Source: an uncultured virus (IMG/VR IMGVR_UViG_3300044637_002122)
Taxonomy: Duplodnaviria; Heunggongvirae; Uroviricota; Caudoviricetes
DNA length: 64,000 bases
IMG/VR virus record: IMGVR_UViG_3300044637_002122
Strand: one strand, 5' to 3'
In this document: positions 9,801 to 62,122 of the stretch, one piece after another
How positions within the stretch are numbered: the first letter of the stretch is position 1
Layout of the letters: each line of letters begins with the position of its first letter
Made by a program: the position numbers and the translations under genes
Notes under the pieces: model-generated
What the model was told of the DNA's origin: nothing
Seen by the model: only the letters and a program-made list of their open reading frames with translations
Database searches by the model: none

Positions 9801-12800
9801 TGCGTCAGCGCGTGCACGAAGCCCGGCCTGTTCTGACTCTGCTCCATCCTGGTTGCCCAGCGTACGTTGCCCGGCTCGTACCCTTTGTCCCCCTTGATTC
9901 GATCCAGGGAGTGCGCCGGAGTCGGCCTCGGCCCCGCGTCCCGCAGAAACGCCGCGAAGCTCTCCGCCCACTCCTCGTTCATCTTGATCCCCTTCGCCCC
10001 GTACTCCCGGTACGCCTGGTCCTTGGGATCTGCGCAGCGACTTCTCGCCTTTCGCCAGTTGTTGTACCCCGGCGTCCGGGATATTCCGCGCTCGCGCATC
10101 AATTACTCCTGCTGGCTTCTTGGCTGCATCCGACCGAGCCCACGACTTGAACTCGTCGACAGACATCTGCGTCACATCGCCCCGGCGGCGCGGCCCGGAT
10201 CCGTCGGAGAAGTGCGCGTCGTAGATGCGGATGGCCTCGTCTCGACTTTGAGCGCCGACGACCGATTTGGTTTCATCGAACGTGCCGTCATCGTTGTATT
10301 GATCGATGACAAACACCGGGGCGCCGGCCGTCGGCGATGCGTGCAAGTAGATGTCCACGCCGTCGCCATCGGCGCCAAGGGTTCGGCGGATATAGCCGTA
10401 GTGGGCCTTCATGCGAACGGACCACTTCTTGCCGCCGCGGTCCGTGCCGCTTCGAACGCTGCCCTCGGGGTTCTCGATGGCGATGTCCAGTCCATCGAAC
10501 CGAAGCATGCCGAGTTTGTAGTTACCGGCCGCCTTCTGCGCCGGCGTCGGCTCCTTGCGGTCGTTCTGCGGGCTCGTGGCCGCGGCATGCGCGCGCGCGT
10601 CGACCATGGCCTTGACCGCGGCGCGCGCCAGGGCGGCATCGGCGCGGCCGCTCAGGCGGACCTCGTCGCCGGTTCGCGAATTGCGAATGAAGAACACGCC
10701 GTCGCGGCGCTCGACGGTCTCGTAGCCCTGGTCGGCCAGGGCGTCGAGCTGGCGGCGGCGCTTGCGGATGACTGCGGGTTCGGCTGGGCTGCCGGCTTCA
10801 CTGCGCGGCGCAGTTTCAGCAGGTGCTGAAGAGGCGCGCTCAGCTGACTTGGTGGCCGCAGACGGCTGCCGGCGCATGATGGCGGCACCATCGTCCCTGC
10901 CGACGGTGCGGAACCCGAGCGACTCGTAGAAGCGCTCAAGGCGCGCGTCATCAGAGAAGCCTGTGGCGTCGAACGCCATCAGCTCAACCGGCAGGCCGGC
11001 CTCGTCTGCACGCGCAAGCAGGGACTGCATGGCGCGCCGGAAGGCGCCGCGGCCGCGGCTCTCGGGGCGGACGGCCGCGTCGTTGATCGTCACCTTGTCG
11101 TCGAGCACGTTGTACTCGATGGTGGCGCCGTCTTGCTCAAGCGTGTTGGTCTCACCTTCGCGCCACGGCGCCCTCTCGGCTGACCGACGAGGCTCCCGCA
11201 TCTGCTGCAGCTGCAGCTTGTCGGTGGCGCTCAGGTTGGCCGGGTTGACCGCAGCGTCCTGCAGAACGCGCATCTGCTCGGCGGTCATGCGCGCCCGGGC
11301 GGCGTCGACCACGGCCTTCTGCTCGGCGGTGCGCAGCGCGGGGATGGTCTTCAGCGCGGCGATCACGTCGTCGGCCGGCGGCGCGCCGGCGGGCGCCTTG
11401 GGCTGCGCCTGGTCGCGCTTGGCGGCCGCGGCGGCGCGCTCTTCGGCCAGGCGCTTCATGCGGCTGTCGCTGCGGGCCTGCTGCTCGGCGGCGGCCTGGG
11501 CGGCGACGTCCTGCCGGCCCGGCACCACCGTCTCGCGCGGCCGGCGGCCCAGGGCGATGCCCGTGGCCTGCGTCAGGCGCTCGTCGGTGGACGGCGGCGG
11601 CGCCAGGCTCTCGTCGATGCGGTCGTAGGGCTTGCCCAGGCCGGCCTCGGCGAAGATCTGCGCCTCGGCCGGGCTGGCCACGCCGCCGCGCTCCTCGACG
11701 TTGCGCAGGGCGCGGTCGATCACGGCCTGGCGCGGTTCGTCCTGGCGTTTGCTGGCATCGACCTGGCCACCAAGGGCGGCGGCCTCGAGGCGCGCCTGCT
11801 CGGCCGGCGTTACAGCCTGAGGCCTGTTCTCGCCGCCGACAGCCTGTGCGCTGTTGGCCGGCCTGGCGCCGAGGCGCATCTCCAGGTTCGTCTTGCGCTG
11901 GGCGTTAATCTGGTCGCGCTCGAACTGGGTGCCGGCCTGCTGGGCGCGCGCCGTCAGGGCTGCGTCGCGATCCACGCCGGTGCGGAGCTGGCCGATGCCA
12001 GGGCGCGCGCCAGGCTGGCGCACATCGCCCTGCGTGGCGCCGGTGATCTCGTCGATGTTCGGCTCGACCGTGGGCGCCGGGTTCGCGCCGGCCCACTGCA
12101 GGCCGGTCTCGATGCGGGTCAGGGCCTGCTCGCGCGCGGTCGGCTGGGCGCTCTTGCTGGAGGCGACGGCCAGGTCCTTGAGCAGGTCCTTCGCGGTGTA
12201 GTCGGAGCCCTCGGCGCGCAGGGCGTCGAGCACGCCCGGGTTGAGGGCGGACTTGATGGCGGCGAGGCGCGGGGCGATCTCGTCGGGCTGGGCGCCCGGC
12301 GTGGCCTCGCGCGAAGCATTGAGCGCCTCGTACTCCTTGCGCTGCTCGGGCGTGAAGATGCCGCCCTGCTGGCCGATGGCCTCAAGCTCGGCTAGGCGGG
12401 CGGCTGGGTCGGGCGGGGCCACGGGCGCCACAGGCGGAGACGCCGCCGTGCCAGCGACGGCCGACTTCGACAGCGGGCTGTTGGGCTCCTGAGCCTTCTG
12501 GATGACGGGGGCCATCTCGGGCGACTGCAGCGCCCCGGCGACGGCGCCGACGCCAGCGCCGCCAACGAAGCCCATGGTCGCCGCTCCGGCAGCGCCCTTG
12601 GTCGAGTCGATCTCGGGGTTGTACTGCGCCGCGGCGCGCTGGCCCTCGATGACGGTGGCCGCCTCTTCGACGGCTTCGGTGCTGCCCTCGATGCCGCCGG
12701 TGGCGAGCGCGTTGCCGACGCGGGTGCGGCCGGCGCCAGGCAGGCCGGCCAGCAGGCGCTCGGCGCCGATGACGCCGGTGGCGGCGCCAAGGATCGCTGG

Positions 12801-13970
12801 CAGCACGCGCGCCTGGGCGGCCGCCTTCTGGGCGATGGCCTCCTTGATCTGGGCCGGATCGGTGATCCCCTGGCGGATCAGCTGCTGAGCATCGGGGCTC
12901 TGCAGAATGACGTCGTCCGGGGACTTCATGACCAGCTCGTAGGCTGTGCCGGCTGCGTCGCCGCCGCCCATGGTTGCGCCGGCCACCGCGCCGCCCGCCA
13001 GGCCAGCTCTTGCAGCCCCGCGCGCGCCGACACCAACCGCCTGCGCAAAGCTCGACGCGCCCTTGACGGCCGCGCCGGGCAGCACAAAGGAGCCGGCAAC
13101 CTGGGCCGCTGTCAGCGCCGGGTTGCGCGCCATGTAGCCGAGCATCGTGGTGACCTCGGCGCTGGCGTCCGGGGCGGCCTCCATGTCGGCAGCCAGGCGC
13201 TCCTTCTCGGCGCGCACGACGTCGCTCTGCTTCTCGACGCCGGACTGGATGAACTCTTCAACGGCCTGAGAGAACTGATTGCCGGGCGAGACGAAGCTGC
13301 CAACCGCGCCGGCGGCACCGGCCACAGCGTTGCCGAACTCGATGACCGTGTCGTTGATGGCCTCGAATACGCCGCGGCTTCGCGTGGGCGCCGGCGGCCG
13401 CGGATCGAGCATCTCGCTGCGCGGGCCGCCGAACCTGCTGGTCGGCTGCTGCGGCGGTGCTGCGGCAAGACTGCCGCCCATCGCGGTCGCGGCCATCCTG
13501 GCGGCCGCAACGCCCTTGTTGACGTAGTCCGGGTCTTCCGCGTAGCCGCCCTTCTTGAGCTCGGCGAAGTACCGGCCTGCGTCAGAGCCAGATCCGGCCG
13601 CCGTGCGGTAGCGCCTTGCGATCAGGCCCGCGAAGTCCTCCCCGAAGCTGTCCGGCGACTCGTAGGCCCGGTACGCGTCGCGCGACCCGGTCATGTTGTC
13701 GGTGGCCTGCGGGCCGGCGCCGGTGAAGTCCTTGATGTTGCCCAGGTTGTTCGTGCCCGGGATGACGCTGCGCCCCCAGCCCGTCTCAAGCCCCCACTGC
13801 CCCAGCAGCACCGCCGGCTCGACGCCGATCTTGCCGCCGACGCGCTGCGCCACGGGGCCGTACTGCTGCACGAATCCCTCGACGCCGCCGGCCTGGGAGG
13901 CGGGACGCGGTTGCGATGCACCAAGCTCTTTGGCGGACTCGGCGATCAGGCTCAGGATGGGATCTTGCAT
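3801..13970 (-). CDS. Giant polyvalent virion/ejection protein 1 (3389 aa): GH73/FlgJ-like glucosaminidase, Gly/Ala-rich membrane segment, GNAT, InPase, zincin metallopeptidase, 4 ART-like domains, HhH-glycosylase-like domain, HDxxGH domain
   Basis: N-terminal QWGLETGWG..NNLGNIK..GGYAEDPDY (GH73). RPESRGRG..RFYESLGF (GNAT). AGNYKLG..IAIENPEGSVRSG..HYGYIRRTLGADGDGVD (InPase). HEFLH at 9189-9203 with downstream EELVSD (zincin). WHGS, GIHFS, YHGT, YHGS (ART-like). WYDGA..AVLSPQKDW..KVRNFYNN..VTIDTH..MQSIAWE. NDLFRAVHDAFGH..GEENAW..ETRGQNS. Lies directly after the ejection-protein genes. Confidence 0.9.
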   Translation of the reverse strand: MQDPILSLIAESAKELGASQPRPASQAGGVEGFVQQYGPVAQRVGGKIGVEPAVLLGQWGLETGWGRSVIPGTNNLGNIKDFTGAGPQATDNMTGSRDAYRAYESPDSFGEDFAGLIARRYRTAAGSGSDAGRYFAELKKGGYAEDPDYVNKGVAAARMAATAMGGSLAAAPPQQPTSRFGGPRSEMLDPRPPAPTRSRGVFEAINDTVIEFGNAVAGAAGAVGSFVSPGNQFSQAVEEFIQSGVEKQSDVVRAEKERLAADMEAAPDASAEVTTMLGYMARNPALTAAQVAGSFVLPGAAVKGASSFAQAVGVGARGAARAGLAGGAVAGATMGGGDAAGTAYELVMKSPDDVILQSPDAQQLIRQGITDPAQIKEAIAQKAAAQARVLPAILGAATGVIGAERLLAGLPGAGRTRVGNALATGGIEGSTEAVEEAATVIEGQRAAAQYNPEIDSTKGAAGAATMGFVGGAGVGAVAGALQSPEMAPVIQKAQEPNSPLSKSAVAGTAASPPVAPVAPPDPAARLAELEAIGQQGGIFTPEQRKEYEALNASREATPGAQPDEIAPRLAAIKSALNPGVLDALRAEGSDYTAKDLLKDLAVASSKSAQPTAREQALTRIETGLQWAGANPAPTVEPNIDEITGATQGDVRQPGARPGIGQLRTGVDRDAALTARAQQAGTQFERDQINAQRKTNLEMRLGARPANSAQAVGGENRPQAVTPAEQARLEAAALGGQVDASKRQDEPRQAVIDRALRNVEERGGVASPAEAQIFAEAGLGKPYDRIDESLAPPPSTDERLTQATGIALGRRPRETVVPGRQDVAAQAAAEQQARSDSRMKRLAEERAAAAAKRDQAQPKAPAGAPPADDVIAALKTIPALRTAEQKAVVDAARARMTAEQMRVLQDAAVNPANLSATDKLQLQQMREPRRSAERAPWREGETNTLEQDGATIEYNVLDDKVTINDAAVRPESRGRGAFRRAMQSLLARADEAGLPVELMAFDATGFSDDARLERFYESLGFRTVGRDDGAAIMRRQPSAATKSAERASSAPAETAPRSEAGSPAEPAVIRKRRRQLDALADQGYETVERRDGVFFIRNSRTGDEVRLSGRADAALARAAVKAMVDARAHAAATSPQNDRKEPTPAQKAAGNYKLGMLRFDGLDIAIENPEGSVRSGTDRGGKKWSVRMKAHYGYIRRTLGADGDGVDIYLHASPTAGAPVFVIDQYNDDGTFDETKSVVGAQSRDEAIRIYDAHFSDGSGPRRRGDVTQMSVDEFKSWARSDAAKKPAGVIDARARNIPDAGVQQLAKGEKSLRRSQGPGVPGVRGEGDQDERGVGGELRGVSAGRGAEADSGALPGSNQGGQRVRAGQRTLGNQDGAESEQAGLRARADAPRQDDDIGGVGSRAGNSGRSDLQEGAAGPFGERSPRARLDASGGASAQPNSGRRDASTQGVGAQGGDSSRYAAEAPGQGDGVASGANQAGVTPALSVDPDRAPGTTFTVRMDGKNVEFKRADVSQLAETESPERDGKARRISRKSAALISAIGAAMGKRVQFFEDVNGERPGDGFVRPADPDTIYLNTVSTINPLSVFGHEFLHTLRQTNPQAWDAIAAVVKTRVKNPKGFRRDYYGAEEADARGDGALSEERDGELEELVSDLGGNLMADQSFWREVFAKIYADNGKDAKGTIARLIAQLQGLIDMAVAAVKGPRFRADRFISDMDAIRAAYRDGLAAYLKESGKSKAGMQAEVLRSVNGVSMSPARKTDDKTIYWHGSPSGDLRGGSTGLHLGTKLAATQALEARIGVPATGEWDGAREYGSTLLAGKKTLKRLQEERGYFLTTGLNAGSRGNPVPDEDYLPQVELKYADGTPMPMSVRPSVRPFRLNTEMSNFKFQPHEDFKANGYMSAAKKRGTARRGYYYSNVAEDSGSISVVVPDGSHVTPVDDSEVTKSPERGIHFSKKQLTAINGAYYGTGLKGLEAERLALSDDPRLKTRVYFYVDEGNGVRPEAGVGGYAHEVELPKLYDAKANAEKLWNSGDLNGTESRILDAGYAGYFVKKHETGQGFAVVIGDAAKSMPAKPIANPKIAGPISTGVPETIKAAPSSKEIDLIDVGNIPGATLRAGMLRFPADSREQANAEMARIGSDLRFSKERLSTPAEEVAAVRKQYEGTDKWLKAPDGTATRLTERQWLHVRTPSFKKWFGDFEKFAGRRGGVWADDKGEVSKVVGRNGEPLVVYHGTDKGGFSEFSRPGGSQRGDLGIFTTDERGVARTYVHRGRARDIGPGDIEEDGEYRDPVAGIYALFINIRNPQESDFEGANWDGSRNGQYMVVDDDGEQLYADDGRGYFEDRDDAFSLVMSKGGNIEPAQDHYETTDSVVREARRSKNDGAIIRQVTDDGGGGGGWYEASDVFVAFEPNQVKSADFNDSTYSADEDDIRRSAVRDVTEAPEFKRWFGNSKVADSRGRPLAVYHGSGSPNIRSFRRGVDGAGWFSESPGLASQFAEEGGGGRGDTVYPVYLALQNPLDVNTPEGRAIMAQANNDRPGLSTEEQLSPLGYDGVIANEGGGRVTYLAFRPEQIKSVFNRGTFDATDPDITRSVAREPRERVHGFEVSTREPYAKPTKDFAPEDSRRDLLISDFASGLGQSKWLSAVSELVEGYPNYRAAATANAPEKKLERTVRQMVENLLWLHDQVPADTRNRSKLWYDGARAIAERWSRKYSISDAQAAGILAVLSPQKDWFMNVSLANRVADIMTDRQAFRWSKQMDETSARIFGKEAYQEDIDAIRGQTLQDLDDAYLRAMWLRVYDQAHNPSSFYIVSPEGDFVAEARTKDGTLGRVAWGGNSTIAKAVSVFDNGSFENISAQLGRKHKVRNFYNNILVPNSPNGHVTIDTHAVAAALLRPLSGNSIEVMHNFGGPKSAHAGLEGTYALYEEAYRRAAAERGILPREMQSIAWEAVRGLFVPTFKAQRRNVEAVDGVWTQFQKGRLSYENARKQVLELAGGIEAPSWAGRDPGAYVEDEPAADDGDLAADGVPAGDSAADGGDSGRRAGASARRSRARDGERGDEGRSLAPLAGAPSIAGATGPDPRLVEVAERYAASRGIQLRRQAEYVKVDPERAKRIAEAYDAMPHAPQDPAVKAAYQDLIQQTRAQYDALVGAGYKFWFMDPEADPYAGNPWNAMRDLRANQRMAVFPTAAGFGTSDFDPAANPLLADAGLEWGFGSPDGQKKRVLVNDLFRAVHDAFGHGLEGAGFRADGEENAWQAHVRLFTGPAVGAITSETRGQNSFLNYGPHGEKNRTAKVADTVFADQKTGLMPDWTWTEGRAEDAVQGPSAPPSPPADLVKIFEDMRSSPGARKSAKAAAAAHPLSAKIQEIERDFLDILDELETSQVLGINCD
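4715..5026 (-). CDS. Small protein (103 aa) nested in the +1 frame of the giant ORF
   Basis: AAAGGA lies 10 nt upstream of the ATG. The sequence is protein-like and amphipathic (LARMLKMNRPLTMETWLRMEYPQGIPRLTAEILAGVPAPLR), while the host frame here reads as a D/G/A/R low-complexity linker. Confidence 0.55.
   Translation of the reverse strand: MKTPENKSSNLLEALKPLAGRDATLARMLKMNRPLTMETWLRMEYPQGIPRLTAEILAGVPAPLRAAAEPETESEGMRAEALRRLRARRLSQAQPAPTRDSSK
9527..10099 (-). CDS. HNH-type homing endonuclease with two C-terminal HTH-like repeats, nested in the +1 frame of the giant ORF
   Basis: AGGAG (10106-10110), 6 nt, then ATG at 10099. Motifs WRKARSRC..YGAKGI..EW..SFAAF..D.GPRP..SLDRI..GYEPGNVRWAT..Q..N are typical of phage HNH endonucleases; followed by repeated TLAEWARELGI / PLKAWARKVGI modules. 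Confidence 0.85.
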   Translation of the reverse strand: MRERGISRTPGYNNWRKARSRCADPKDQAYREYGAKGIKMNEEWAESFAAFLRDAGPRPTPAHSLDRIKGDKGYEPGNVRWATRMEQSQNRPGFVHALTHRGKTMTLAEWARELGIPAGRIYKRVQQGLSASEALEPGLMPRGAPPRNLTLDGETLPLKAWARKVGIHPDTLRKRLDKGMELRQALIKPA

Positions 13971-46757: not shown

Positions 46758-49094
46758 TCAGTAGCCAGCCTTCGAGGCCGCCTCGTAGTTCTTGCCGCCG
46801 CCGCCGCTCATGTGCTTCGGCAGAACGAACTCGGTGAACGTGAGCGCCAGAGCGTCGCCGCCGTCAGGGCTGCGGATGCCGCGCTTCTCGAGCTTCTCCT
46901 TCGGCTCGAGCAGCTTGCGGCCGTTGCTGGACGTGTCGGGCTGCGGCGCGCAGATGTCGGCGATGAACGCCGGGTTGTTGACGATGCGGACAGGCTGTTC
47001 CTCGAACCAGTCCTTCATGCGCCACCACATCTCGGCCTTCTTGTTGGCGTAGATCTCGCTGTCGCTGGCGGCCTGGCCGAACATCACACCCACCACGGGG
47101 ACGTTCAGCTCCTGGAGGCGGTCGACGATGCCGGTGCCGATGCCGCCCTTGTCGACGAACATCGCGTCAGGGTGGAACTCGCGGTAGTAGTCGGCCAGCT
47201 TGCCGGCGACCTGCATGGAGTTCAGCTTCTCGTGGTACTCCACGCGGAACACGACACGGCCGCGGCGGAAGACGATGCAGGTACGGTCCTTGGTGCCCGC
47301 ACCATCGCTCGCGGGGTCGCAGCCGATGATCAGTGCGCCGGACTCGTCGTAGTAGTCGCTGGCAGAGGCGGCGTGGACGTAGTGCGGGTTGACCAGCGGG
47401 TTCTGGGTGCCGCTCTGGAAACCCTCAGAAGCTGTAAGGGGGTACTCCTGCTTGAACAGCCAAGCAAAACCTTCGCCATAGCTGGCGATCTTGTTCGCGC
47501 GCCACTGCATCTGCTCCAGATCAAGGCCGTACAGCTTCTGGATCTGCTCATCTTCCTCTGTGAGCTCAAGGTCCTTGCGCACCTTGGCGCGATACTCCGG
47601 CTGCCAGTACCACGGCACGAAGATGGCTTGGTAGCTAGTCTTGCCGGCCTCGGCGTCCTGCCACAGCTTGTGGAAGTAGTTGCCCAGGCCGTTGGCTGTG
47701 CTCTCGAGGATGACCTCGGTGCCATGGATGTCGGCGATGGTGTTGCCCAGGCCCGCCATGTGCGCCTCGGCGTTCTGCCAGAAGGCGGCCTCCGAGCCGT
47801 GCAGCAGCTGAGCGGTGTTGGAGCGGCCCACGTCCTTCGTTCCAGCTGTCGCCAACTTGTACCCGCCATCGAGCTTGTCGAAGATCAGCTCCTTGGCGTT
47901 GGTCGCGCCGGTGCTGACCGGCATTGGGTTGTGGTCGTGGTAGCGACGCACCATCGTGTATAGGTTGTCGGTCGCCTTCTGCTCGTGGGCAACGATGAAT
48001 GCGCTCTGGCCGCGGACGGTGGTGGTGCGGTGGTAGTAGCGCGAGCTGATGTAGGTCGAGTTGTGGGAGACCAAGCCATCGACGATGAAGGTCTTCGACG
48101 AGGTCTGCAGGTCCACCACATCGATCTCGCCCACCGGCTCGATGGAGATGATCTCGTCCCATGACTCCTGCTTACCGCCCCCGTCGACCGCACGATTGCC
48201 GCCGATCTTGCGGCCCTCAAGGTCGCTGGCATCGAACTGCACGCGCGAAGTGCGGCAGCGGTTCATGACGTAAGCGACGTCTGCGATTCGGCCAACCTCA
48301 AGCTGATGGACAGGCTTGGCGCCAAGCTTTGAACTCGTGCCGCAGCGACGATCGACCGTCTCCGAGTAGCGCACCCCGAGCGCATCCAGCCAGCCTCGCA
48401 TCCGCATCAGCACAGGCCCCTCGACCTGGCTGACGGTGAGCGCCACTTTGGACTCGCCGCGCGACGAGCGATGACCCTCGCCATCGATGATCCCAGCGAA
48501 CCACCCGTCTTCGTAGTCCAGCAGCGTCGGCGGCGCGCGGAACGCGGACCTGATCTTGTCCCCCGGCTTGGCCCAATCGATGTCGCGCCAGATCGTCATG
48601 ACGCCGCCGCGCTGCTTGAAAAGCATGCGATGGTCGCCAGTGGCCACCAGATCGCGTCCAGAGGCCAAGCGCACCCGGAACGCCTGCTTCCTGAAGCGAG
48701 CCACGTACTCAACGGTCGCGATCCTGAAGCGTCGGCAGGTCTTGCGATCCAGCTTCGTCAAGCCAGAGTCGCCGACGTTCTCGTCGACGGCCACTAGGCG
48801 ATCTCCGACGCGCACGCTGTCGAGAGTGCGCCAAGAAAGGTCCTCCATGAGCACCTTATGGTGGCCCGCCAAGCAACAACCCTGCTGCCGACCTTTGAGC
48901 GTAATCGCTCGCACGTAACCGATTTCGGCCCTCTGGCGCTCAAGCGCTTCGTGGATGAAGCGCTGGGCTCGGTTCCATATGAATGGGACCAGCGCCCCGC
49001 TCTTGTCCTTGACCTTCAGGCAGTGCGCGCAGAAGACCTCCAGATTGTCCCGCAGCAGCTGCAGCCCGACGAGTCGATGGTCCTTCTCGCTCAT
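46758..49094 (-). CDS. terL: Terminase large subunit, intein-containing
   Basis: PF.WN.AQ, LKGRQQGC|STY (Walker A), LLHGSEAAFW (Walker B), ESTANG, FVPWY, FKQEYP, IGCDPA, SPDGGDALALTF. Confidence 0.93.
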   Translation of the reverse strand: MSEKDHRLVGLQLLRDNLEVFCAHCLKVKDKSGALVPFIWNRAQRFIHEALERQRAEIGYVRAITLKGRQQGCCLAGHHKVLMEDLSWRTLDSVRVGDRLVAVDENVGDSGLTKLDRKTCRRFRIATVEYVARFRKQAFRVRLASGRDLVATGDHRMLFKQRGGVMTIWRDIDWAKPGDKIRSAFRAPPTLLDYEDGWFAGIIDGEGHRSSRGESKVALTVSQVEGPVLMRMRGWLDALGVRYSETVDRRCGTSSKLGAKPVHQLEVGRIADVAYVMNRCRTSRVQFDASDLEGRKIGGNRAVDGGGKQESWDEIISIEPVGEIDVVDLQTSSKTFIVDGLVSHNSTYISSRYYHRTTTVRGQSAFIVAHEQKATDNLYTMVRRYHDHNPMPVSTGATNAKELIFDKLDGGYKLATAGTKDVGRSNTAQLLHGSEAAFWQNAEAHMAGLGNTIADIHGTEVILESTANGLGNYFHKLWQDAEAGKTSYQAIFVPWYWQPEYRAKVRKDLELTEEDEQIQKLYGLDLEQMQWRANKIASYGEGFAWLFKQEYPLTASEGFQSGTQNPLVNPHYVHAASASDYYDESGALIIGCDPASDGAGTKDRTCIVFRRGRVVFRVEYHEKLNSMQVAGKLADYYREFHPDAMFVDKGGIGTGIVDRLQELNVPVVGVMFGQAASDSEIYANKKAEMWWRMKDWFEEQPVRIVNNPAFIADICAPQPDTSSNGRKLLEPKEKLEKRGIRSPDGGDALALTFTEFVLPKHMSGGGGKNYEAASKAGY
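48060..48875 (-). mobile_element. Intein (272 aa) with one LAGLIDADG motif, inserted in the TerL Walker A motif
   Basis: Starts CLAGHHKVLM; block B ATGDHR; WFAGIIDGEG; ends VVDLQT..FIVDGLVSHN followed by Ser. Confidence 0.92.
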
Positions 49095-55252: not shown

Positions 55253-55606
55253 TCACTGCCGGCGCTCGATGACGGGGGGCTCGACGACGTCGCGGCGCGG
55301 CACCACGTTGGCCGTCACGGCGGCGCCGATCACGGCGGCCACAACCCACCCCAGGGTCCGCTGGACCCAGTCGCTGGACTGCTTGTGGATCGGGGCCTGG
55401 GCCTCCAGGGCGGCGATCCGGAGCGTCAGTCGATCGATCAGCTCGACGGCCCTCTCGTGAGCGTCCTTGCTGTTGGCCTGGCGCTCCTCGAGAACGGCCA
55501 GCCTCGTGTAGGCGGCAGCCAGCTGAGCCAGCGATCCCTTCATCTCCCCGACGTCGCTTTGCAGCGCGCGGATCTCCGCCTTGGTGGCTGGCGACTCGTC
55601 GCTCAT
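55253..55606 (-). CDS. Holin/antiholin-like protein (coiled coil plus C-terminal TM)
   Basis: RLAVLEERQ..RIAALE..P; WVVAAVIGAAV; adjacent to the endolysin. Confidence 0.6.
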   Translation of the reverse strand: MSDESPATKAEIRALQSDVGEMKGSLAQLAAAYTRLAVLEERQANSKDAHERAVELIDRLTLRIAALEAQAPIHKQSSDWVQRTLGWVVAAVIGAAVTANVVPRRDVVEPPVIERRQ

Positions 55607-55860
55607 GCGTCTCGCTCCTCGTCATGCAGCGAGCGCTGCTTGTAAGCCCTGGCGCCGATCGTGGCGGCGGTCCACGCGAGGTTGACCTGGGCGCAAAACG
55701 CGGCCGCGGCCGGCGCGCCATCGCCCACGATCCCAAAGTGCGAGAGCAGCAGGGCCTGCTGATCCGCCGGCGTGGTCAGGTAGGCCGTGCACACGGCGCC
55801 GAGCGCAGCCTGCAGCCACACGCTCCACATGCGGATCAATCGCCGCGGTGACTCAAACAC
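55603..55860 (-). CDS. Holin-like membrane protein
   Basis: RRLIRMWSVWL..; two hydrophobic segments ending ARAYKQ; GAGGAG SD. Confidence 0.6.
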   Translation of the reverse strand: MFESPRRLIRMWSVWLQAALGAVCTAYLTTPADQQALLLSHFGIVGDGAPAAAAFCAQVNLAWTAATIGARAYKQRSLHDEERDA

Positions 55861-55912
55861 GATCGCGCTCCTCTTTGACGACCAACACAGCGTTGGCCAG
55901 CCTGCGCGCGCG

Positions 55913-55918
55913 ATTCTA
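55913..55918 (-). promoter_or_regulatory. Possible -10 box (TAGAAT) of the late operon
   Basis: In the divergent intergenic region upstream of the holin. Confidence 0.35.
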
Positions 55919-55977
55919 GTGCTCGCTCACTGGGCCGGGCATGGAACTCCGCGTTTTCGGTGGCGGCAGAGCGATGT

Positions 55978-56021
55978 TGGGGTAAACACCTATGCCAATC
56001 TTTCGTTGTCCGCCCAACAAT
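55978..56021 (+). promoter_or_regulatory. Early promoter/operator motif, copy 1
   Basis: TGGGGTAAACACCTA-N11-CGTTG-N8-ACAAT. Confidence 0.65.
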
Positions 56022-56061
56022 AGCGTCAACGCAGCAAGGAGTTCCGGCTCTGAACTGCGGT

Positions 56062-56130
56062 GCCCCCGTAGCAGATTGGCATTGCGCCGGCTGGAAACCG
56101 GAGAAGGCGGATCGTTCCCGCCCGGGGGTT
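56062..56130 (+). ncRNA. tRNA-like RNA (GGA in the anticodon position; non-canonical)
   Basis: Cloverleaf: acceptor GCCCCCG/CGGGGGT; D-arm GCAG-ATTGGCA-TTGC; CCGG-CTGGAAA-CCGG; T-arm GGCGG-ATCGTTC-CCGCC. Confidence 0.7.
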
Positions 56131-56142
56131 TCAGTGACCAGC

Positions 56143-56162
56143 GGCCTGCCCCGCGGCAGGCC
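56143..56162 (+). promoter_or_regulatory. Leader hairpin, copy 1, upstream of an SD
   Basis: GGCCTGCC-CCGC-GGCAGGCC, then TCACCCAACAGGAGA. Confidence 0.5.
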
Positions 56163-56187
56163 AGTGTTCACCCAACAGGAGACCGCC

Positions 56188-56394
56188 ATGACCCCGAAAG
56201 ACATGACCTGGCTGGAGCGCCACGAGCGCGACCGGCGCTGGTCGCAGAGCGTGAACTTCGGCTCGCCGATGTCCATCTGGACCACGACGATGCTCGAGGT
56301 GCGCCGCGACATGGGCCAGCCCAGCAGCCCGGCAGACGTCCTGGCGCAGGAGGCCGAGGTCCGGCGCCGCGACGCGGCCAAGCGCGCGGCGTGA
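56188..56394 (+). CDS. Hypothetical early protein (68 aa)
   Basis: CAGGAG SD before MTPKDMTW. Confidence 0.65.
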   Translation: MTPKDMTWLERHERDRRWSQSVNFGSPMSIWTTTMLEVRRDMGQPSSPADVLAQEAEVRRRDAAKRAA

Positions 56395-56407
56395 GGCTGG
56401 AACAGCC

Positions 56408-56632
56408 ATGAGCAAGCCCATCCCGGTCTACGACTGCCCGGCGCGCCAGAGCACCCACACGCTCTCGCGCGCCGCGGCGGCCGCCTTCCTGCGCCACCAG
56501 CGCCGCAAGCGCGTCGTCATCCGCTGCCGCGACGGCCACACGTACTGCGCCCCCGCCACCCATTGGAACAACTGGCGCATCACCACCCGCCCGACGCAGC
56601 GCGACCTCGATCGCGCCAGCAGCTGGCGATGA
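56408..56632 (+). CDS. Hypothetical early protein
   Basis: ORF tiling. Confidence 0.55.
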   Translation: MSKPIPVYDCPARQSTHTLSRAAAAAFLRHQRRKRVVIRCRDGHTYCAPATHWNNWRITTRPTQRDLDRASSWR

Positions 56633-56754
56633 GCAACCGGCCGCCCGCCAACTGGCCCTTCCCCAGGTACGACAAGAAAGGCCGAATCATCAGGCCACTT
56701 CGCCAGCGCAAGCCGGCACCCACCTACCCGCCGGGCGAGCCGGCACCATTCTAG
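56629..56754 (+). CDS. Hypothetical peptide (41 aa, WPFP motif)
   Basis: ATGA coupling; MSNRPPANWPFPRYDKKG. Confidence 0.5.
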   Translation: MSNRPPANWPFPRYDKKGRIIRPLRQRKPAPTYPPGEPAPF

Positions 56755-56763
56755 GAGATCGAG

Positions 56764-56991
56764 ATGACGACCAAAGGAAGCTACGAGGCCGTCTTCGGCC
56801 ACCTGGGCATGACGCCCGACGAGGTCGGCAACAGGATGATCGCCTTGCGGGACGCCCTGTCGGCCCTGCTGCAGCACGAGGGTGAGCGGGTGCTCGACGG
56901 CATCGGGATCGAGCACGACTCTCCCGCCCTGGAGCAGGCGAAGAAGACAGCCGCAGATCTACTGGAGGGCTCCGACTCGGTCCGGGCTTAG
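56764..56991 (+). CDS. Hypothetical early protein
   Basis: AGGAG SD. Confidence 0.6.
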   Translation: MTTKGSYEAVFGHLGMTPDEVGNRMIALRDALSALLQHEGERVLDGIGIEHDSPALEQAKKTAADLLEGSDSVRA

Positions 56992-57031
56992 GGTAAACGC
57001 CCATTCCGTTCGCTGTTGCGTCGCCCACAAT
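56989..57031 (+). promoter_or_regulatory. Early promoter/operator motif, copy 2
   Basis: TAGGGTAAACGCCCA-N10-TGTTG-N8-ACAAT. Confidence 0.7.
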
Positions 57032-57063
57032 TCGCTACATCGTCAAACAACAAGGAGATCGTC

Positions 57064-57579
57064 GTGTCCCAGTACATCCCCACCCACTACACCGGCACCT
57101 TCAGCGGCGGGCGCTGCGTCGAGACCTCTGTGCAGCCCGGCACCTACCAGGGCCACCACGCCGACGGCAGCAGCATCCAGAAGCACAGCGCCGGCGGAGC
57201 CTACCCCTACGTGCTGCAGCTGCGCGACAAGCCGGCCGGCGGCTACTGGTGGGAGATGACCGGCCCCGGCATCGAGGGCGCGCTGCGGTTCGGCTCCGGC
57301 GACGAGTGGGACGCCGCGGCCCGCCGCATCCTGGCGGTGCGCAGCAACGCCGACGCCTGGGCCTTCGAGCTCGAGCAGCTGTGCGTCGTCGCGGGCCACC
57401 GCCAGCTGGCGATGCACCTGGCCGCGCACGCCTGGCCCGGCCCCGCCAAGTGGGACGACATGAGCTCCGCGCAGCGCGTCTCCGCCCTGCTCTGGCTGGG
57501 CAAGGCCAGGGGCACGCTGCGCCTGCCGCCCGGCACGCAGCAGCCCGTCTTCGCGCGGATGGCCTCGGTCGCGGTATAG
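57064..57579 (+). CDS. Hypothetical early protein
   Basis: AAGGAG, 6 nt, GTG (MSQYIPTHY). Confidence 0.65.
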   Translation: MSQYIPTHYTGTFSGGRCVETSVQPGTYQGHHADGSSIQKHSAGGAYPYVLQLRDKPAGGYWWEMTGPGIEGALRFGSGDEWDAAARRILAVRSNADAWAFELEQLCVVAGHRQLAMHLAAHAWPGPAKWDDMSSAQRVSALLWLGKARGTLRLPPGTQQPVFARMASVAV

Positions 57580-57619
57580 GGCAAACACCTATACCTTTCA
57601 ATGTTGCATGGGCAACAAT
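57577..57619 (+). promoter_or_regulatory. Early promoter/operator motif, copy 3
   Basis: TAGGGCAAACACCTA-N10-TGTTG-N8-ACAAT. Confidence 0.7.
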
Positions 57620-58094: not shown

Positions 58095-58114
58095 GGCTTG
58101 CCCCGAGGCAAGCC
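58095..58114 (+). promoter_or_regulatory. Leader hairpin, copy 2, upstream of an SD
   Basis: GGCTTGCC-CCGA-GGCAAGCC, then TCACCCACCAGGAGA. Confidence 0.5.
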
Positions 58115-58138
58115 CTTGTCACCCACCAGGAGAGCCCC

Positions 58139-58529: not shown

Positions 58530-58808
58530 ATGAGCAAGCACTGCCCCATGTGCGCCGGCCCCGGCGCCCTCCTCGGCTCTCTCGGCCGCACGAAGCACTT
58601 CCGCTGCGTCGACTGCGGCTGGACCTTCTCGCGCACGCCCAAGGCCCGCGCGCGCCGCCCGGTGGCAGCGGCCCTGGCCGCCGTCGCGATCGCGCTGACC
58701 GGCTGCGGCGGCAGCACCAGCGACGAGCTCGACTGCCGCCCCGACATCATGGGCCCGCCGGCGCCGAGTGTCGCTCACCTCCCCACCTGCGAGAACCCCA
58801 ATGGCTGA
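58530..58808 (+). CDS. Small Zn-ribbon protein with an internal lipobox-like segment
   Basis: CPMC..LLGSLGR..HFRCVDCG; AALAAVAIALTGC. Confidence 0.6.
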   Translation: MSKHCPMCAGPGALLGSLGRTKHFRCVDCGWTFSRTPKARARRPVAAALAAVAIALTGCGGSTSDELDCRPDIMGPPAPSVAHLPTCENPNG

Positions 58809-59205: not shown

Positions 59206-59513
59206 TGAGTGCTGACAGCTTCATCGCCCCGGGCGCCCGCGTCTGGCTGCTGGACCGCGTGCGCGTTCGATCGGGCTACGGGCCGCAGCTGGTGACGGTG
59301 GCGGACGTCCACCGGCCCAACGACCAGGTGCTGAACTTCCGCACCCAGGGCACGCGCGGGTGGTACACGCAGACCGACGCCTTCGCCACAGAGAACGAGG
59401 CCAAGCTGGCCTGGTTCGACCGCGCCGACGCCGAGTACCAGCGCGAGCTCTCGCGCTTCAACACGATCTCGCGCCGGCTGCTGGCGTATCAAGCGAACAG
59501 GAGCACCTTATGA
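59205..59513 (+). CDS. Hypothetical early protein
   Basis: TGATG coupling. Confidence 0.6.
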   Translation: MSADSFIAPGARVWLLDRVRVRSGYGPQLVTVADVHRPNDQVLNFRTQGTRGWYTQTDAFATENEAKLAWFDRADAEYQRELSRFNTISRRLLAYQANRSTL

Positions 59514-59803
59514 ACGACGCAAAACACGCAGCAGGCCCGTGGGAGGCAAGCTACGACGGCCACGGCGGCATCTACATCGGCGACGCCGAGGGTCGCCAGG
59601 TTGGCTTCATCTCGCGCCACCCGGAGCAAGACCGCAACGCCGCGCTCGTACAGGCCGCGCCCGACCTGCTGGACGCGCTGCTAGCCACCTACGAAGCACT
59701 CGGCATTAGCTACCCGCTGCACAGCAGCGACATGGACAAGCGCGGGGCAGTGCTGGCGAAGGCCTGCGCCGCCATCGCCAAGGCCACCAAGGAGCTTTCA
59801 TGA
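59510..59803 (+). CDS. Conserved phage hypothetical (H..GPW / NA.L..AAPDLL.AL type)
   Basis: CAGGAG SD; HAAGPW..NAALVQAAPDLLDAL..AAIAKAT. Confidence 0.7.
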   Translation: MNDAKHAAGPWEASYDGHGGIYIGDAEGRQVGFISRHPEQDRNAALVQAAPDLLDALLATYEALGISYPLHSSDMDKRGAVLAKACAAIAKATKELS

Positions 59804-60990
59804 AAGTCATCAATAGCCAAGGCAAGAAGCCCATATTCGCTTGGACTGAAGGCGTGCCCGTCGAGGACGAGGCGATGCGCCAGCTCGACAACATCGCCGG
59901 GCTGCCCTTCATCTTTCGCCACGTTGCGGTGATGCCCGACGTCCACTTCGGCATCGGAGCCACCGTGGGCAGCGTCATCGCAACGAAGGGCGCCATCGTG
60001 CCCGCCGCGGTGGGCGTGGACATCGGGTGCGGCATGAACGCCATCCGACTGAGTCTGAAGGCCAGCGACCTCCCGGAAAGCCTGAAGGAGATCCGCCACC
60101 AGATCGAGCGCGACGTGCCGGTGGGCTTCAATGTTCACAAGCGCGAGCAGGTTATCGACCAGAACCTGAAGAGCATGCCGAACTTCGCGGGCATGGTGTT
60201 CGACGACGTCCTTCTCCTTGAGCACCTGGGCTACGCCGGGAAAGCGCCGGCGCAGCTTGGCACACTGGGTGGTGGCAACCACTTCATCGAGCTGTGCCTG
60301 GACGAGAACCAGGACGTCTGGGCGATGCTGCACAGCGGCTCGCGCGGGATTGGCAACGCCATCGGGCGGCACTTCATCGAGCTTGCCAAGCGCGACATGG
60401 AGCGCTACTACATCAACCTGCCCGACCAGGATCTGGCGTACCTGCCCGAGGGCTCGGAGAACTTCAAGGCTTACTGCCGCATGGTCTCGTGGGCCCAGCG
60501 CTACGCAGCGGCCAACCGCATGGTCATGATGGATCTCGTCCTGGCCGCTCTTCGCAGGCATCTGCCCGCCTTCGAGGTGACGCAGGAGGCCATCAACTGC
60601 CACCACAACTACATCTCGCACGAGAACCACTTCGGCGAGAACGTGTGGGTCACGCGCAAGGGTGCCGTGAGTGCTCGCCAGGACCAGCTGGGAATCATCC
60701 CCGGCTCGATGGGGGCCAAGAGCTACATCGTGCGCGGCAAGGGCAGCCCGGACTCGTTCTGCTCGTGCTCGCACGGTGCCGGCCGGGTGATGTCGCGCAA
60801 TAAGGCCAAGGGCATGTTCACTCGTCTGCAGCACGAGGAGGCCACCCGCGGCGTCGAGTGCCGCAAGGACGAGGGCGTGCTCGATGAGACCCCGGCCGCC
60901 TACAAGGACATCGACGCCGTCATGGAGGCGCAGCAGGATCTGGTCGAGGTGGTTCACACCTTGAAGCAGGTTCTCTGCGTGAAGGGTTGA
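59800..60990 (+). CDS. rtcB: RNA-splicing/repair ligase RtcB
   Basis: MPDVH.G.GATVG, VGVDIGCGM, LGTLGGGNHFIE, LHSGSRG, HHNY, RKGA, IPGSMG, SCSHGAGR, DETP.AYK, VKG. Confidence 0.96.
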   Translation: MKVINSQGKKPIFAWTEGVPVEDEAMRQLDNIAGLPFIFRHVAVMPDVHFGIGATVGSVIATKGAIVPAAVGVDIGCGMNAIRLSLKASDLPESLKEIRHQIERDVPVGFNVHKREQVIDQNLKSMPNFAGMVFDDVLLLEHLGYAGKAPAQLGTLGGGNHFIELCLDENQDVWAMLHSGSRGIGNAIGRHFIELAKRDMERYYINLPDQDLAYLPEGSENFKAYCRMVSWAQRYAAANRMVMMDLVLAALRRHLPAFEVTQEAINCHHNYISHENHFGENVWVTRKGAVSARQDQLGIIPGSMGAKSYIVRGKGSPDSFCSCSHGAGRVMSRNKAKGMFTRLQHEEATRGVECRKDEGVLDETPAAYKDIDAVMEAQQDLVEVVHTLKQVLCVKG

Positions 60991-61004
60991 GTGTGGTCGG
61001 CGCC

Positions 61005-61208
61005 ATGAACATCCCCCTCGCCCTCTCCATCCTCTTCGCCTGCGGCGGCGCCTCGATGGTGATCATCGCCCTCTACCACTGGTCCCTGCCCGAGCAGATG
61101 CAGAAGACCTGGCGCGACCTCGAGCAGATCGACCTGGCGTCCATCTGGACAATGCTGTTCGGCCTCGTGCTACTGGCCATCTCGCTCGCCTTCGGCGTGC
61201 ACGCTTAG
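61005..61208 (+). CDS. Small two-TM membrane protein
   Basis: Two hydrophobic segments; the start could instead be 60987. Confidence 0.55.
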   Translation: MNIPLALSILFACGGASMVIIALYHWSLPEQMQKTWRDLEQIDLASIWTMLFGLVLLAISLAFGVHA

Positions 61209-61249
61209 GGTAAACACCTACACAACTGCCTGTTGCCCTGTTGCACAAT
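61206..61249 (+). promoter_or_regulatory. Early promoter/operator motif, copy 4
   Basis: TAGGGTAAACACCTA-N10-TGTTG-N9-ACAAT. Confidence 0.7.
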
Positions 61250-61282
61250 CTGTTCCGCCGTCAACGCAAACAGGAGTTTCAA

Positions 61283-61624
61283 GTGTCCACGCCCCGCCTG
61301 TACCAAGCCCTGCAGTTCAGCAAGCCGAACGCTCAGGGCCGCATCGATCACTGCTCCATCCACCTGGCGGCCAACGACCGCGAAGAGGCCATCCGAATCC
61401 TCCGCGAGGAAGGCTTCGTCAGCGACAACGTCGAGGTCTACCTGCTGGCCGACTGGGCCATCGACAAGGGCCCGCGCACCCGCATCGGTCAGAGCAGCCT
61501 GAACGGCGCGCACACCAGCGAGCCGACCACCATCGAGCAGCACGCCAACTGGGTCCGCGTGATGACCCGATCGCACCGCGACGACGGCGAAGTCACGCCG
61601 CCCACCTGGGTTCGCGCTCGCTGA
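61283..61624 (+). CDS. Hypothetical early protein
   Basis: CAGGAG, 6 nt, GTG. Confidence 0.6.
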   Translation: MSTPRLYQALQFSKPNAQGRIDHCSIHLAANDREEAIRILREEGFVSDNVEVYLLADWAIDKGPRTRIGQSSLNGAHTSEPTTIEQHANWVRVMTRSHRDDGEVTPPTWVRAR

Positions 61625-61633
61625 GGCCTCGCC

Positions 61634-62122
61634 ATGAACTACTTCCTCCTCAACGGCGACCTCGAGGTCATCGCGACCTCGAGCAAGTTCCCTGGCAACG
61701 ACTCTATCCCCGCGCGCAAGCCGGCCGACGGCGTCTACCGCGGCCGCGACACGGTGTGGTTGATGAGTGCTGGCTGGACCGACCGCAACGACTGGGAGAC
61801 CCTGGCCGACGCCGAGCGCATCGCCGCCAGCGCCACCAAGGCCACCGGCAAGACCTGGCTGGCCTGCGACCGCGGCGAGCACACCAGCCCGCGCTACGAC
61901 GTCATCGAGGCGCCGGTCGTTGGCCAAGAGGTCAGCCACGGCTTCAACGGCGACGCCTACCCGCTGGGCAAGATCACCAAGATCAGCCCTGACTTCAAGA
62001 CCGTGATGGTGCTCAGCAAGATGGGCGTCCGCCATCGGTTCACGCGGCGAGGCGCCGGCTGGATCAACAAGGGCTGGTCGCTGCTGCCTGGCAGCCAGTA
62101 CCGGCAGAACCCGGAGTTCTGA
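61634..62122 (+). CDS. Hypothetical early protein
   Basis: GAGG SD; D.G..TSPRYDVIEAP.VG.EVS..FNGD.YP.G.I..IS; ends NPEF. Confidence 0.7.
   Translation: MNYFLLNGDLEVIATSSKFPGNDSIPARKPADGVYRGRDTVWLMSAGWTDRNDWETLADAERIAASATKATGKTWLACDRGEHTSPRYDVIEAPVVGQEVSHGFNGDAYPLGKITKISPDFKTVMVLSKMGVRHRFTRRGAGWINKGWSLLPGSQYRQNPEF

Follow-up and report, generated by a model that had tools for sequence, protein, structure and literature searches.

Phage tRNAs are now viewed as weapons against host defenses that cut tRNAs. Sequences with the shape of a tRNA are also known within longer transcripts, as tRNA-mRNA co-transcripts or as tRNA-like signals cut by RNase P, e.g., in the E. coli tRNA-tufB operon, the phage T4 tRNA region and the "tRNA punctuation" of mitochondria. 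The determinant for RNase P is an intact stack of the acceptor and T arms. Bacterial seryl-tRNA synthetase (SerRS) depends on the long variable arm, which is the main identity element of tRNA-Ser. Some phage-encoded tRNAs are proposed to escape or replace host tRNAs that have been cut by defense nucleases (PMC10264068, PMC11555353, PMC12409363). The tRNA-Other of Bacillus cereus is reported to be a chromosomal pseudo-tRNA that is predicted not to take part in translation and has a demonstrated phenotype (PMC3399842). Here we describe a tRNA-like element of 69 nt (56062–56130, + strand) at the head of the early genes of an uncultured Caudoviricetes phage (IMG/VR record IMGVR_UViG_3300044637_002122). 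Positions are those of the whole stretch of 64,000 nt that was analyzed, called the window below.

The element is genuine and tRNA-derived, yet clearly substandard as a tRNA. Its best explanation, which we regard as about evenly balanced between right and wrong, is that of a miniaturized descendant of viral tRNAs, probably non-decoding, that would be excised from an early leader. The T arm would come from a class of viral tRNAs with A54 and U58 in the T-loop (AUCGUUC), and the D arm, the anticodon stem and the anticodon GGA would be like those of viral class-II tRNA-Ser. Miniaturization would have meant the loss of the long variable arm, of two D-loop bases and of one layer of the anticodon stem.

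Structure of the element

The sequence of 56062–56133 reads GCCCCCG-UA-GCAG-AUUGGCA-UUGC-G-CCGG-CUGGAAA-CCGG-AGAA-GGCGG-AUCGUUC-CCGCC-CGGGGGU-U-UCA. ARAGORN identifies 56062–56130 as tRNA-Ser(gga), the single tRNA-type gene in the window, and makes no further tRNA-type call in an extra 3.6 kb of the same phage that lies beyond the window (record G001, which overlaps the window at 1–34145 only). The acceptor stem in the ARAGORN structure has 7 bp, including a G1.U72 wobble, and is directly followed by U8-A9. The D stem has 4 bp with one G.U, and the D-loop, AUUGGCA, contains the GG. The T arm (56106–56122, 17 nt) has a 5 bp stem, GGCGG/CCGCC, around the loop AUCGUUC. The element thus has the arms of a canonical cloverleaf: four fully paired stems, and the conserved U8, A14, G18, G19, A21, U33, A37, G53-C61, U55, C56 and G57. 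The anticodon, GGA (56093–56095), is a serine anticodon that sits in a loop (CUGGAAA) with U33 and A37, and the D and anticodon arms are of the serine type. Stacked on each other, the acceptor and T arms give an unbroken helix of 12 bp; the nucleotide at −1 is U and that at +1 is G.

The element departs from a standard tRNA at several places. The anticodon stem consists of four Watson-Crick pairs (CCGG/CCGG); ARAGORN adds a G.A opposition, with nucleotide 26 gone. When aligned to R1, a covariance model that we built from 44 distinct class-I phage tRNAs, the element shows a deletion of the 31–39 pair. A 5 bp anticodon stem with nucleotide 26 present is thus absent. The variable region is 3–4 nt according to both ARAGORN and R1, far from the long arm of a class-II tRNA-Ser, which in the viral tRNA-Ser genes is a stem-loop. 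The T-loop has A54 and U58 in place of the canonical U54 and A58, and a swap of the AUCGUUC type is found in 0 of the 44 training tRNAs. The discriminator U is followed by UCA (56131–56133) and a 3′ CCA is not encoded. All features of the 69-nt cloverleaf listed in a preliminary description of this DNA are present in the ARAGORN structure and the sequence letters. This includes U15 and A48, where the letters stand as described and the pairing of the two is conjectural.

Scores as a tRNA

The ARAGORN score of the element is 113.1, which was reached in 0 of 300 dinucleotide shuffles of the window (19.2 Mb). The shuffles together yielded eight calls, all of 82–94 nt and with scores of 100.2–108.3. 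In 1.14 Mb of fetched phage loci there are 78 ARAGORN calls, with scores between 102.2 and 125.5. R1, run with filters off, scores the element at 34.8 bits (E ~9e−8, a rough estimate), and the second-best place on either strand of the window receives 14.6 bits. As a control for a strong T-arm hairpin we used 100 of at least 120 bacterial and archaeal loci with the identical T-arm 17-mer; none of these is a tRNA, and their R1 scores are at most 10.5 bits. Because the element lies above all shuffles by ARAGORN and far above background by R1, two independent measures, we consider it real and beyond chance.

Other measures show how poor a tRNA it is. All 44 training tRNAs score above it with R1 (47–86 bits). 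Rfam has no match in the window at the gathering threshold, and RF00005 is not listed for the element even at E ≤ 10 on a segment of 86 nt, on which the best member of the tRNA clan is tRNA-Sec (12.8 bits, E 2.6, gathering score 47). The scoring suggested in the preliminary description was thus divided, with ARAGORN calling a tRNA-Ser(GGA) and the Rfam tRNA model not reporting one. In fold energy the 72 nt do not stand out (z = −0.64), and 45 of 200 shuffles fold equally well or better. The cloverleaf is less stable than the minimum-energy fold by 1.1 kcal/mol, and its D and anticodon arms have low pairing probabilities (0.08–0.26).

Origin of the T arm

In viral contigs the sequence of this arm, GGCGG-AUCGUUC-CCGCC (17 nt), was found at 16 loci, three of which are tRNAs that lie inside tRNA clusters. 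These three are a tRNA-Val(UAC) (L116, 68.3 bits with R1), a tRNA-Asp(GUC) (L114, 64.3 bits) and a tRNA-Pro(CGG) (L124, 22 bits with R1 and 112.7 with ARAGORN). A fourth tRNA with the identical arm, on a metagenome contig, is a tRNA-Ala(GGC) that passes RF00005 at 32.4 bits (L094). The loop itself is far more common than this one stem. A search of viral contigs (IMG/VR) for a common D-arm word together with GGAUCGUUCC matched at least 120 loci (L282–L401), and every one listed is an ARAGORN tRNA with the T-loop AUCGUUC. They comprise 72 distinct sequences: 55 Ile(GAU), five with the anticodon CAU, four Asp, two Ile(UAU) and one each of His, Val(UAC), Lys, Asn, Val(GAC) and Thr. CCA is encoded at the end of 67 of them. 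Their T stems are of 13 different kinds, each fully paired with compensating changes. Because the loop is kept at so many loci on 13 compensating, fully paired stems, the comparison indicates that A54/U58 is a maintained natural variant of viral tRNAs, widespread and not peculiar to the element. The G+C content of the flanks of these loci spans 9% to 63%.

The element shares with this class the AUCGUUC loop closed by G53-C61 on a paired stem of 5 bp, and does not share the otherwise canonical body and the encoded CCA. The D-loop of the class keeps A14-G15; U15 is common to the D arms of viral tRNA-Ser. The preliminary description had argued from two swapped pairs, 54/58 and 15/48, to a maintained fold. 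For 54/58 the recurrent viral T-loop bears this out, and 15/48 found no comparative support. It had also inferred a non-decoding tRNA mimic. The 54/58 swap is no evidence for a special mimic, as it would be inherited from a viral lineage whose members look like working, CCA-ended tRNAs.

In cellular genomes the T-loop pattern matched 0 of 401 genomes of one phylum and none in four handles, a weak negative, as the control pattern of the D arm plus the canonical T-loop matched in just 3 of 41 of those genomes. A BLAST of the variant tRNA-Ile against named phages returned only ordinary tRNA-Ile genes, at about 80–86% identity, and no cultured phage with the variant. Our literature search found no publication joining A54, U58, T-loop and tRNA, and a search for the loop as a string of letters gave, among the matches listed, only unrelated ones of the primer type. 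The recurrence of the swapped loop in many viral tRNAs suggests that the U54-A58 pair is not obligatory. The A54/U58 class would be a concrete and testable set of tRNAs for asking what reads the T-loop in infected cells.

Origin of the D arm and anticodon stem

The D arm plus the CCGG/CCGG stem, searched as a pattern, had matches at two places in viral contigs. Each of them, L159 with Ser(UGA) and L160 with Ser(CGA), is a tRNA-Ser gene of class II. The pattern was derived from the element itself, so only the isotype of the two matches is independent. Both have the same 4 bp anticodon stem topped by a mismatch. Set against viral tRNA-Ser, the element has no long variable arm, its D-loop is smaller by two bases and one base is missing at position 26/27. 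Its ancestor may be Ser-like, judging by the D arm, the anticodon stem and GGA; in crude global alignments viral tRNA-Cys(GCA) is about equally close, with 53 identical positions.

Searches with larger parts of the element were negative. The anticodon plus T-arm pattern had 0 matches in viral contigs, and the 5′-half 21-mer had 0 in genome contigs. A T-arm 20-mer had 22 matches in metagenome contigs, none of which shares the upstream part, and a nucleotide search of a phage collection matched no named relative.

Setting in the early region

G+C in the phage window is 63–72%. Up to ~55860 the minus strand carries virion, lysis and small-terminase genes, and then a plus-strand block of small early genes begins that includes rtcB. 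A 16-nt motif, TWRGGGYAAACRCCYA, is present in four copies, all on the plus strand, against an expectation of 0.13 by chance, and four or more copies occurred in 0 of 100 shuffles. The copies lie at 55977–55992, 56988–57003, 57576–57591 and 61205–61220, and each is followed by an inverted repeat of the TGTTGC...GCAACA type, a similar leader and a ribosome-binding site (RBS). They may be early promoters or operators. Three copies are conserved in the relative G006 (L085, L161), and a similar word is found in an unrelated rtcB contig (L028). A scan of 55500–57200 found no sigma-70-type promoter or intrinsic terminator.

Copy 1 of the motif, TTGGGGTAAACACCTA (55977–55992, +), is adjoined by a 9-mer, UGCCAAUCU (55993–56001, +), which is the perfect complement of 56073–56081 in the D arm of the element. 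Complementarity of this length was matched or exceeded in 25 of 2000 shuffles of the element. The same 9-mer is present in L085, which is without the element. The copy-1 leader also contains an RBS-like AAGGAG (56036–56041, +) that is orphaned, with no usable start codon behind it. At motif copies 2 and 4, and in L085, the equivalent RBS leads directly into a gene. Here the order behind it is the element, a hairpin (56143–56162), the RBS AGGAGA (56177–56182, +) and an open reading frame (ORF) of 68 aa, ORF1 (56188–56394, +).

The hairpin, GGCCTGCC-CCGC-GGCAGGCC (+ strand), is the first half of an intergenic unit that is repeated in the window (56143–56187 and 58095–58138) and in L085 (2785–2827). 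In each case a G+C-rich hairpin is followed by "(t)cacccaNcaggaga" and a start codon. The second hairpin of the window (58095–58114) has a compensating C>T/G>A change, and the RBS of ORF1 stands in the same context, CCAACAGGAGACCGCCATG, in L085. This hairpin and RBS unit may be a recombination or RNA-processing module, because the gain and loss of cassettes in two variants described below (X5 and X6) occurs exactly there.

ORF1 is the first early gene after the element and has no family match. As a handle for homology searches it gave only two weak loci, neither with a tRNA call. We also considered a real ORF across the element, as 55960–56394 and 55992–56411 are open, and rejected it: in the X6 variant the stretch lost between the RBS and the next start is 220 nt long, a length not divisible by 3, and the good RBS is located at 56177–56182. 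The rtcB gene (59800–60990, +; RNA 3′-phosphate ligase) lies 3.7 kb downstream of the element in the same early region. It matches phrog_1075, "tRNA splicing ligase" (E 4.4e−148), and its product is 65% identical to RtcB of the Bordetella phage PHB04. No CCA-adding enzyme and no further gene for RNA repair was seen among the ORFs scanned. The small early protein encoded at 58530–58808 (+) resembles the restriction-alleviation protein Lar weakly and below the threshold (E 1.9e−4).

Relatives and variant populations

The closest relative (L085/G006) is 95% identical to the window up to 56033, and homology resumes at 56403. In the slot of the element it has an ORF of 92 aa, which follows the leader RBS immediately, and another small ORF unlike that of the window, with no ARAGORN tRNA call. 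We rejected the idea that the element is a remnant of this 92-aa gene, as a short-word BLAST shows only the stretch of the RBS to be shared. The relative is also without rtcB: window positions 59360–62122 are swapped for 5.4 kb of other genes, with the flanking genes colinear.

No RNA run is among the 24 listed for this sequence. In the metagenome runs X3 and X4 there are no differences from the window across the element. An X6 contig covering 55975–56135 has a single difference (at 56046) and the span 56062–56135 is unchanged. A second X6 contig runs without differences from 56111 to 56184 and then joins 56405, skipping 56185–56404 and with it ORF1, and the hairpin unit there leads straight into gene 2. 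Gene 2 of X6 differs at 21 of 229 positions while the element has no difference. The X5 contig covering 55898–56182 has seven differences, five of them at 55942–56046; after 56182 it has an insert of 192 nt and then a second copy of 56133–56182, i.e., a duplicated unit. In at least two variant backgrounds the element is thus accompanied by the hairpin unit, and in a further one a gene stands in its place. The contigs of X4, X5 and X6 break in or leave uncovered the region 55780–55975, which is continuous in the X3 contig; this may be a variable spot or lie near the physical end of the genome.

Processing and decoding

The element fills what would be the first-gene slot of an early operon: motif copy 1, its leader and the orphan RBS precede it, and the unit of hairpin and RBS comes after it. 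Placed there, it would make up the 5′ portion of the earliest transcript. By the known substrate rules, host RNase P and a 3′ tRNA-processing nuclease would be expected to cut it out, because the 12 bp acceptor/T stack is intact and U is found at −1 and G at +1. Excision would yield a tRNA-shaped RNA of ~69 nt and an ORF1 mRNA that starts near the hairpin at 56143–56162.

The RNA would probably not be charged by SerRS and would not decode. That it is non-decoding is most likely because the long variable arm that SerRS needs is absent and the anticodon arm is one layer short. The silence of Rfam, an R1 score below those of all 44 training tRNAs and the lack of an encoded CCA speak further against decoding. 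The preliminary description had kept the element apart from ordinary tRNA-Ser, and the missing arm, stem layer and CCA uphold this; an ordinary tRNA-Ser is unlikely. Its broader proposal of a non-decoding tRNA mimic stands as far as a tRNA-shaped and probably non-decoding RNA is concerned; the T-loop swap is no evidence for it. For annotation, this would mean that the ARAGORN label of an ordinary tRNA-Ser is probably wrong as to function, while Rfam misses the element entirely.

Several observations weigh against a miniaturized, excised and non-decoding tRNA descendant. Its transcription, processing and CCA addition are all predicted, and the closest relative lives without the element. In a model fold of 55993–56187, the 9 bp helix between the leader and the D arm (p ~0.96) beats the cloverleaf by 2.9 kcal/mol, and the acceptor stem falls to 0.03. 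If the transcript begins at the motif, this helix could prevent, hinder or regulate tRNA-like processing. Two of the traits that set the element apart are lineage traits and no proof of non-function: the T-loop variant sits in apparently working tRNAs, and the 4 bp anticodon stem with its mismatch is also present in the viral tRNA-Ser relatives. The homolog collection proposed in the preliminary description yielded no diverged copy of the whole element in viral, metagenome or genome contigs or in the phage collection, and its own stems are therefore without covariation support. Finally, the positions of two of the seven X5 differences are unlisted, and an unchanged element cannot be claimed for X5.

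Alternative explanations

The element could be a decaying tRNA pseudogene, Ser-like or Cys-like, that was left after deletions as neutral filler in an early leader. We consider this unlikely, though it deserves serious attention. The three deletions relative to viral tRNA-Ser genes, the failure of Rfam to report the element and its absence from the 95% relative are all as expected of decay, and the element is the sole tRNA-type call in the window and in the extra sequence of the same phage. Random decay should, however, strike the stems and tertiary positions, and the element keeps full pairing in all four stems, with about 11 conserved tertiary positions undamaged. Phages also pack their early regions tightly, and the element is kept, with no listed change, in variants with differing flanks (X5 being partly resolved).

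A working tRNA of odd build, charged by some synthetase and reading UCC/UCU, is improbable. Its ARAGORN score falls within the range of the phage tRNA calls, CCA-ended viral tRNAs of 64–68 bits have the same A54/U58 loop, and full-size viral tRNA-Ser has in common with it the anticodon stem of 4 bp plus a mismatch. Against these stand the absence of the long variable arm, the loss of nucleotide 26 or of one stem pair, the low R1 score (34.8 bits vs. 47–86 in the training set), the silence of RF00005 and the CCA that is not encoded.

It is doubtful, more so than a working tRNA, that the element acts as a decoy, as the preliminary description proposed, with its Ser-type anticodon loop as bait for a host anticodon nuclease, and that it works with the phage RtcB as a sink or as a ligation substrate or partner. 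At the head of the early operon it would be placed to be made first in infection, rtcB is in the same early region, and G006 is without both. Phage tRNAs are reported to counter tRNA-cleaving defenses (PMC10264068, PMC11555353, PMC12409363). The joint absence, however, comes from one comparison, and the region is mosaic, with differences in at least four further cassettes. Around phage rtcB loci, ordinary tRNAs lie within ~7 kb in 20 of 80 cases and in none of the other 60, so rtcB needs no such partner, and the decoy has no known nuclease target. A bolder version, equally speculative, is that the A54/U58 elbow marks a phage-enriched lineage selected to evade host enzymes that recognize, modify or cut the canonical T-loop. 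The element would be its minimal non-decoding member, serving as an early tRNA-Ser-like bait or sink while RtcB repairs the real tRNAs.

Many temperate phages hold part of a host tRNA gene in attP, and the element might be such an attachment-site remnant, a host tRNA gene copy kept for integration. This is very improbable: the element is a complete, non-canonical cloverleaf and not merely the 3′ portion of one, the ORFs scanned include no integrase, the 5′-half 21-mer is in no genome contig, and 0 of 100 genomic loci with the T-arm 17-mer are tRNAs. A chance cloverleaf in G+C-rich intergenic DNA, to which the unremarkable fold energy and the noise-level best score in the Rfam clan would be suited, can be dismissed almost entirely in view of the 0 of 300 shuffles that reached the ARAGORN score, the 20-bit gap in R1 to the next place, the controls at or below 10.5 bits, a T arm identical to that of real viral tRNAs, and a D arm and anticodon stem that match tRNA-Ser genes.

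Other features of the window

Two giant ORFs on the minus strand, at 3801–13970 (3389 aa) and 3–3797 (>1265 aa), match lysozyme, DarB-like, ParB-like and internal-virion families, and from these matches they are probably ejected virion proteins. We had considered an N4-like phage, with the 3389-aa ORF as a virion RNA polymerase, and rejected it, as that ORF matches giant internal-virion, DarB-like and lysozyme families instead. A protein of 778 aa (46758–49094, −) matches helicase weakly and, below the threshold, an intein-splicing domain (E 6.4e−5; 23.2 bits vs. a cut-off of 35.8). In another record, G003, which has 29 tRNA matches, an RtcB-like match is split in two within one open frame of 869 aa (contig positions 69064–71379, −), a pattern that would fit an rtcB containing an intein.

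Comparison with known systems

Like phage tRNAs, the element is tRNA-shaped and set among early genes, in a phage that also has rtcB. Unlike them, it fails the Rfam tRNA model, has a Ser anticodon without a long arm and a short anticodon arm, has no encoded CCA and is a single gene and not a cluster. If an RNA with the shape of a tRNA that does not decode is indeed placed at the front of an operon together with rtcB, the picture of what phages carry would widen from spare tRNAs to decoys or processing modules.

The element also resembles the viral A54/U58 tRNAs. It has exactly their T-loop, its T arm equals that of L094, L114, L116 and L124 over all 17 nt, and G53-C61, U55, C56 and G57 are kept. 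The class is otherwise canonical, with R1 scores of 64–68 bits, anticodon stems of 5 bp, variable loops of 5 nt and CCA in 67 of the 72 distinct sequences (from at least 120 loci), and the element, at 34.8 bits, is without these. With the two viral tRNA-Ser genes, L159 and L160, it shares the D arm GCAGAUUGGC...UGC, the CCGG/CCGG stem with its top mismatch, the "CCGGA" after the stem and a Ser anticodon. It differs from both in being without the long variable arm, in a D-loop that is 2 nt shorter, in one base fewer at 26/27 and in its T arm.

Like tRNA-mRNA co-transcripts, the element would immediately precede an mRNA within a single transcription unit, as the layout of the region suggests. 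It differs from them in that its processing is predicted and that a helix of the leader and the D arm competes with it in the model fold. B. cereus tRNA-Other is likewise reported as a tRNA-like gene predicted not to serve translation; it is chromosomal and has a known phenotype, whereas the element is borne by a phage, and the likeness is one of description.

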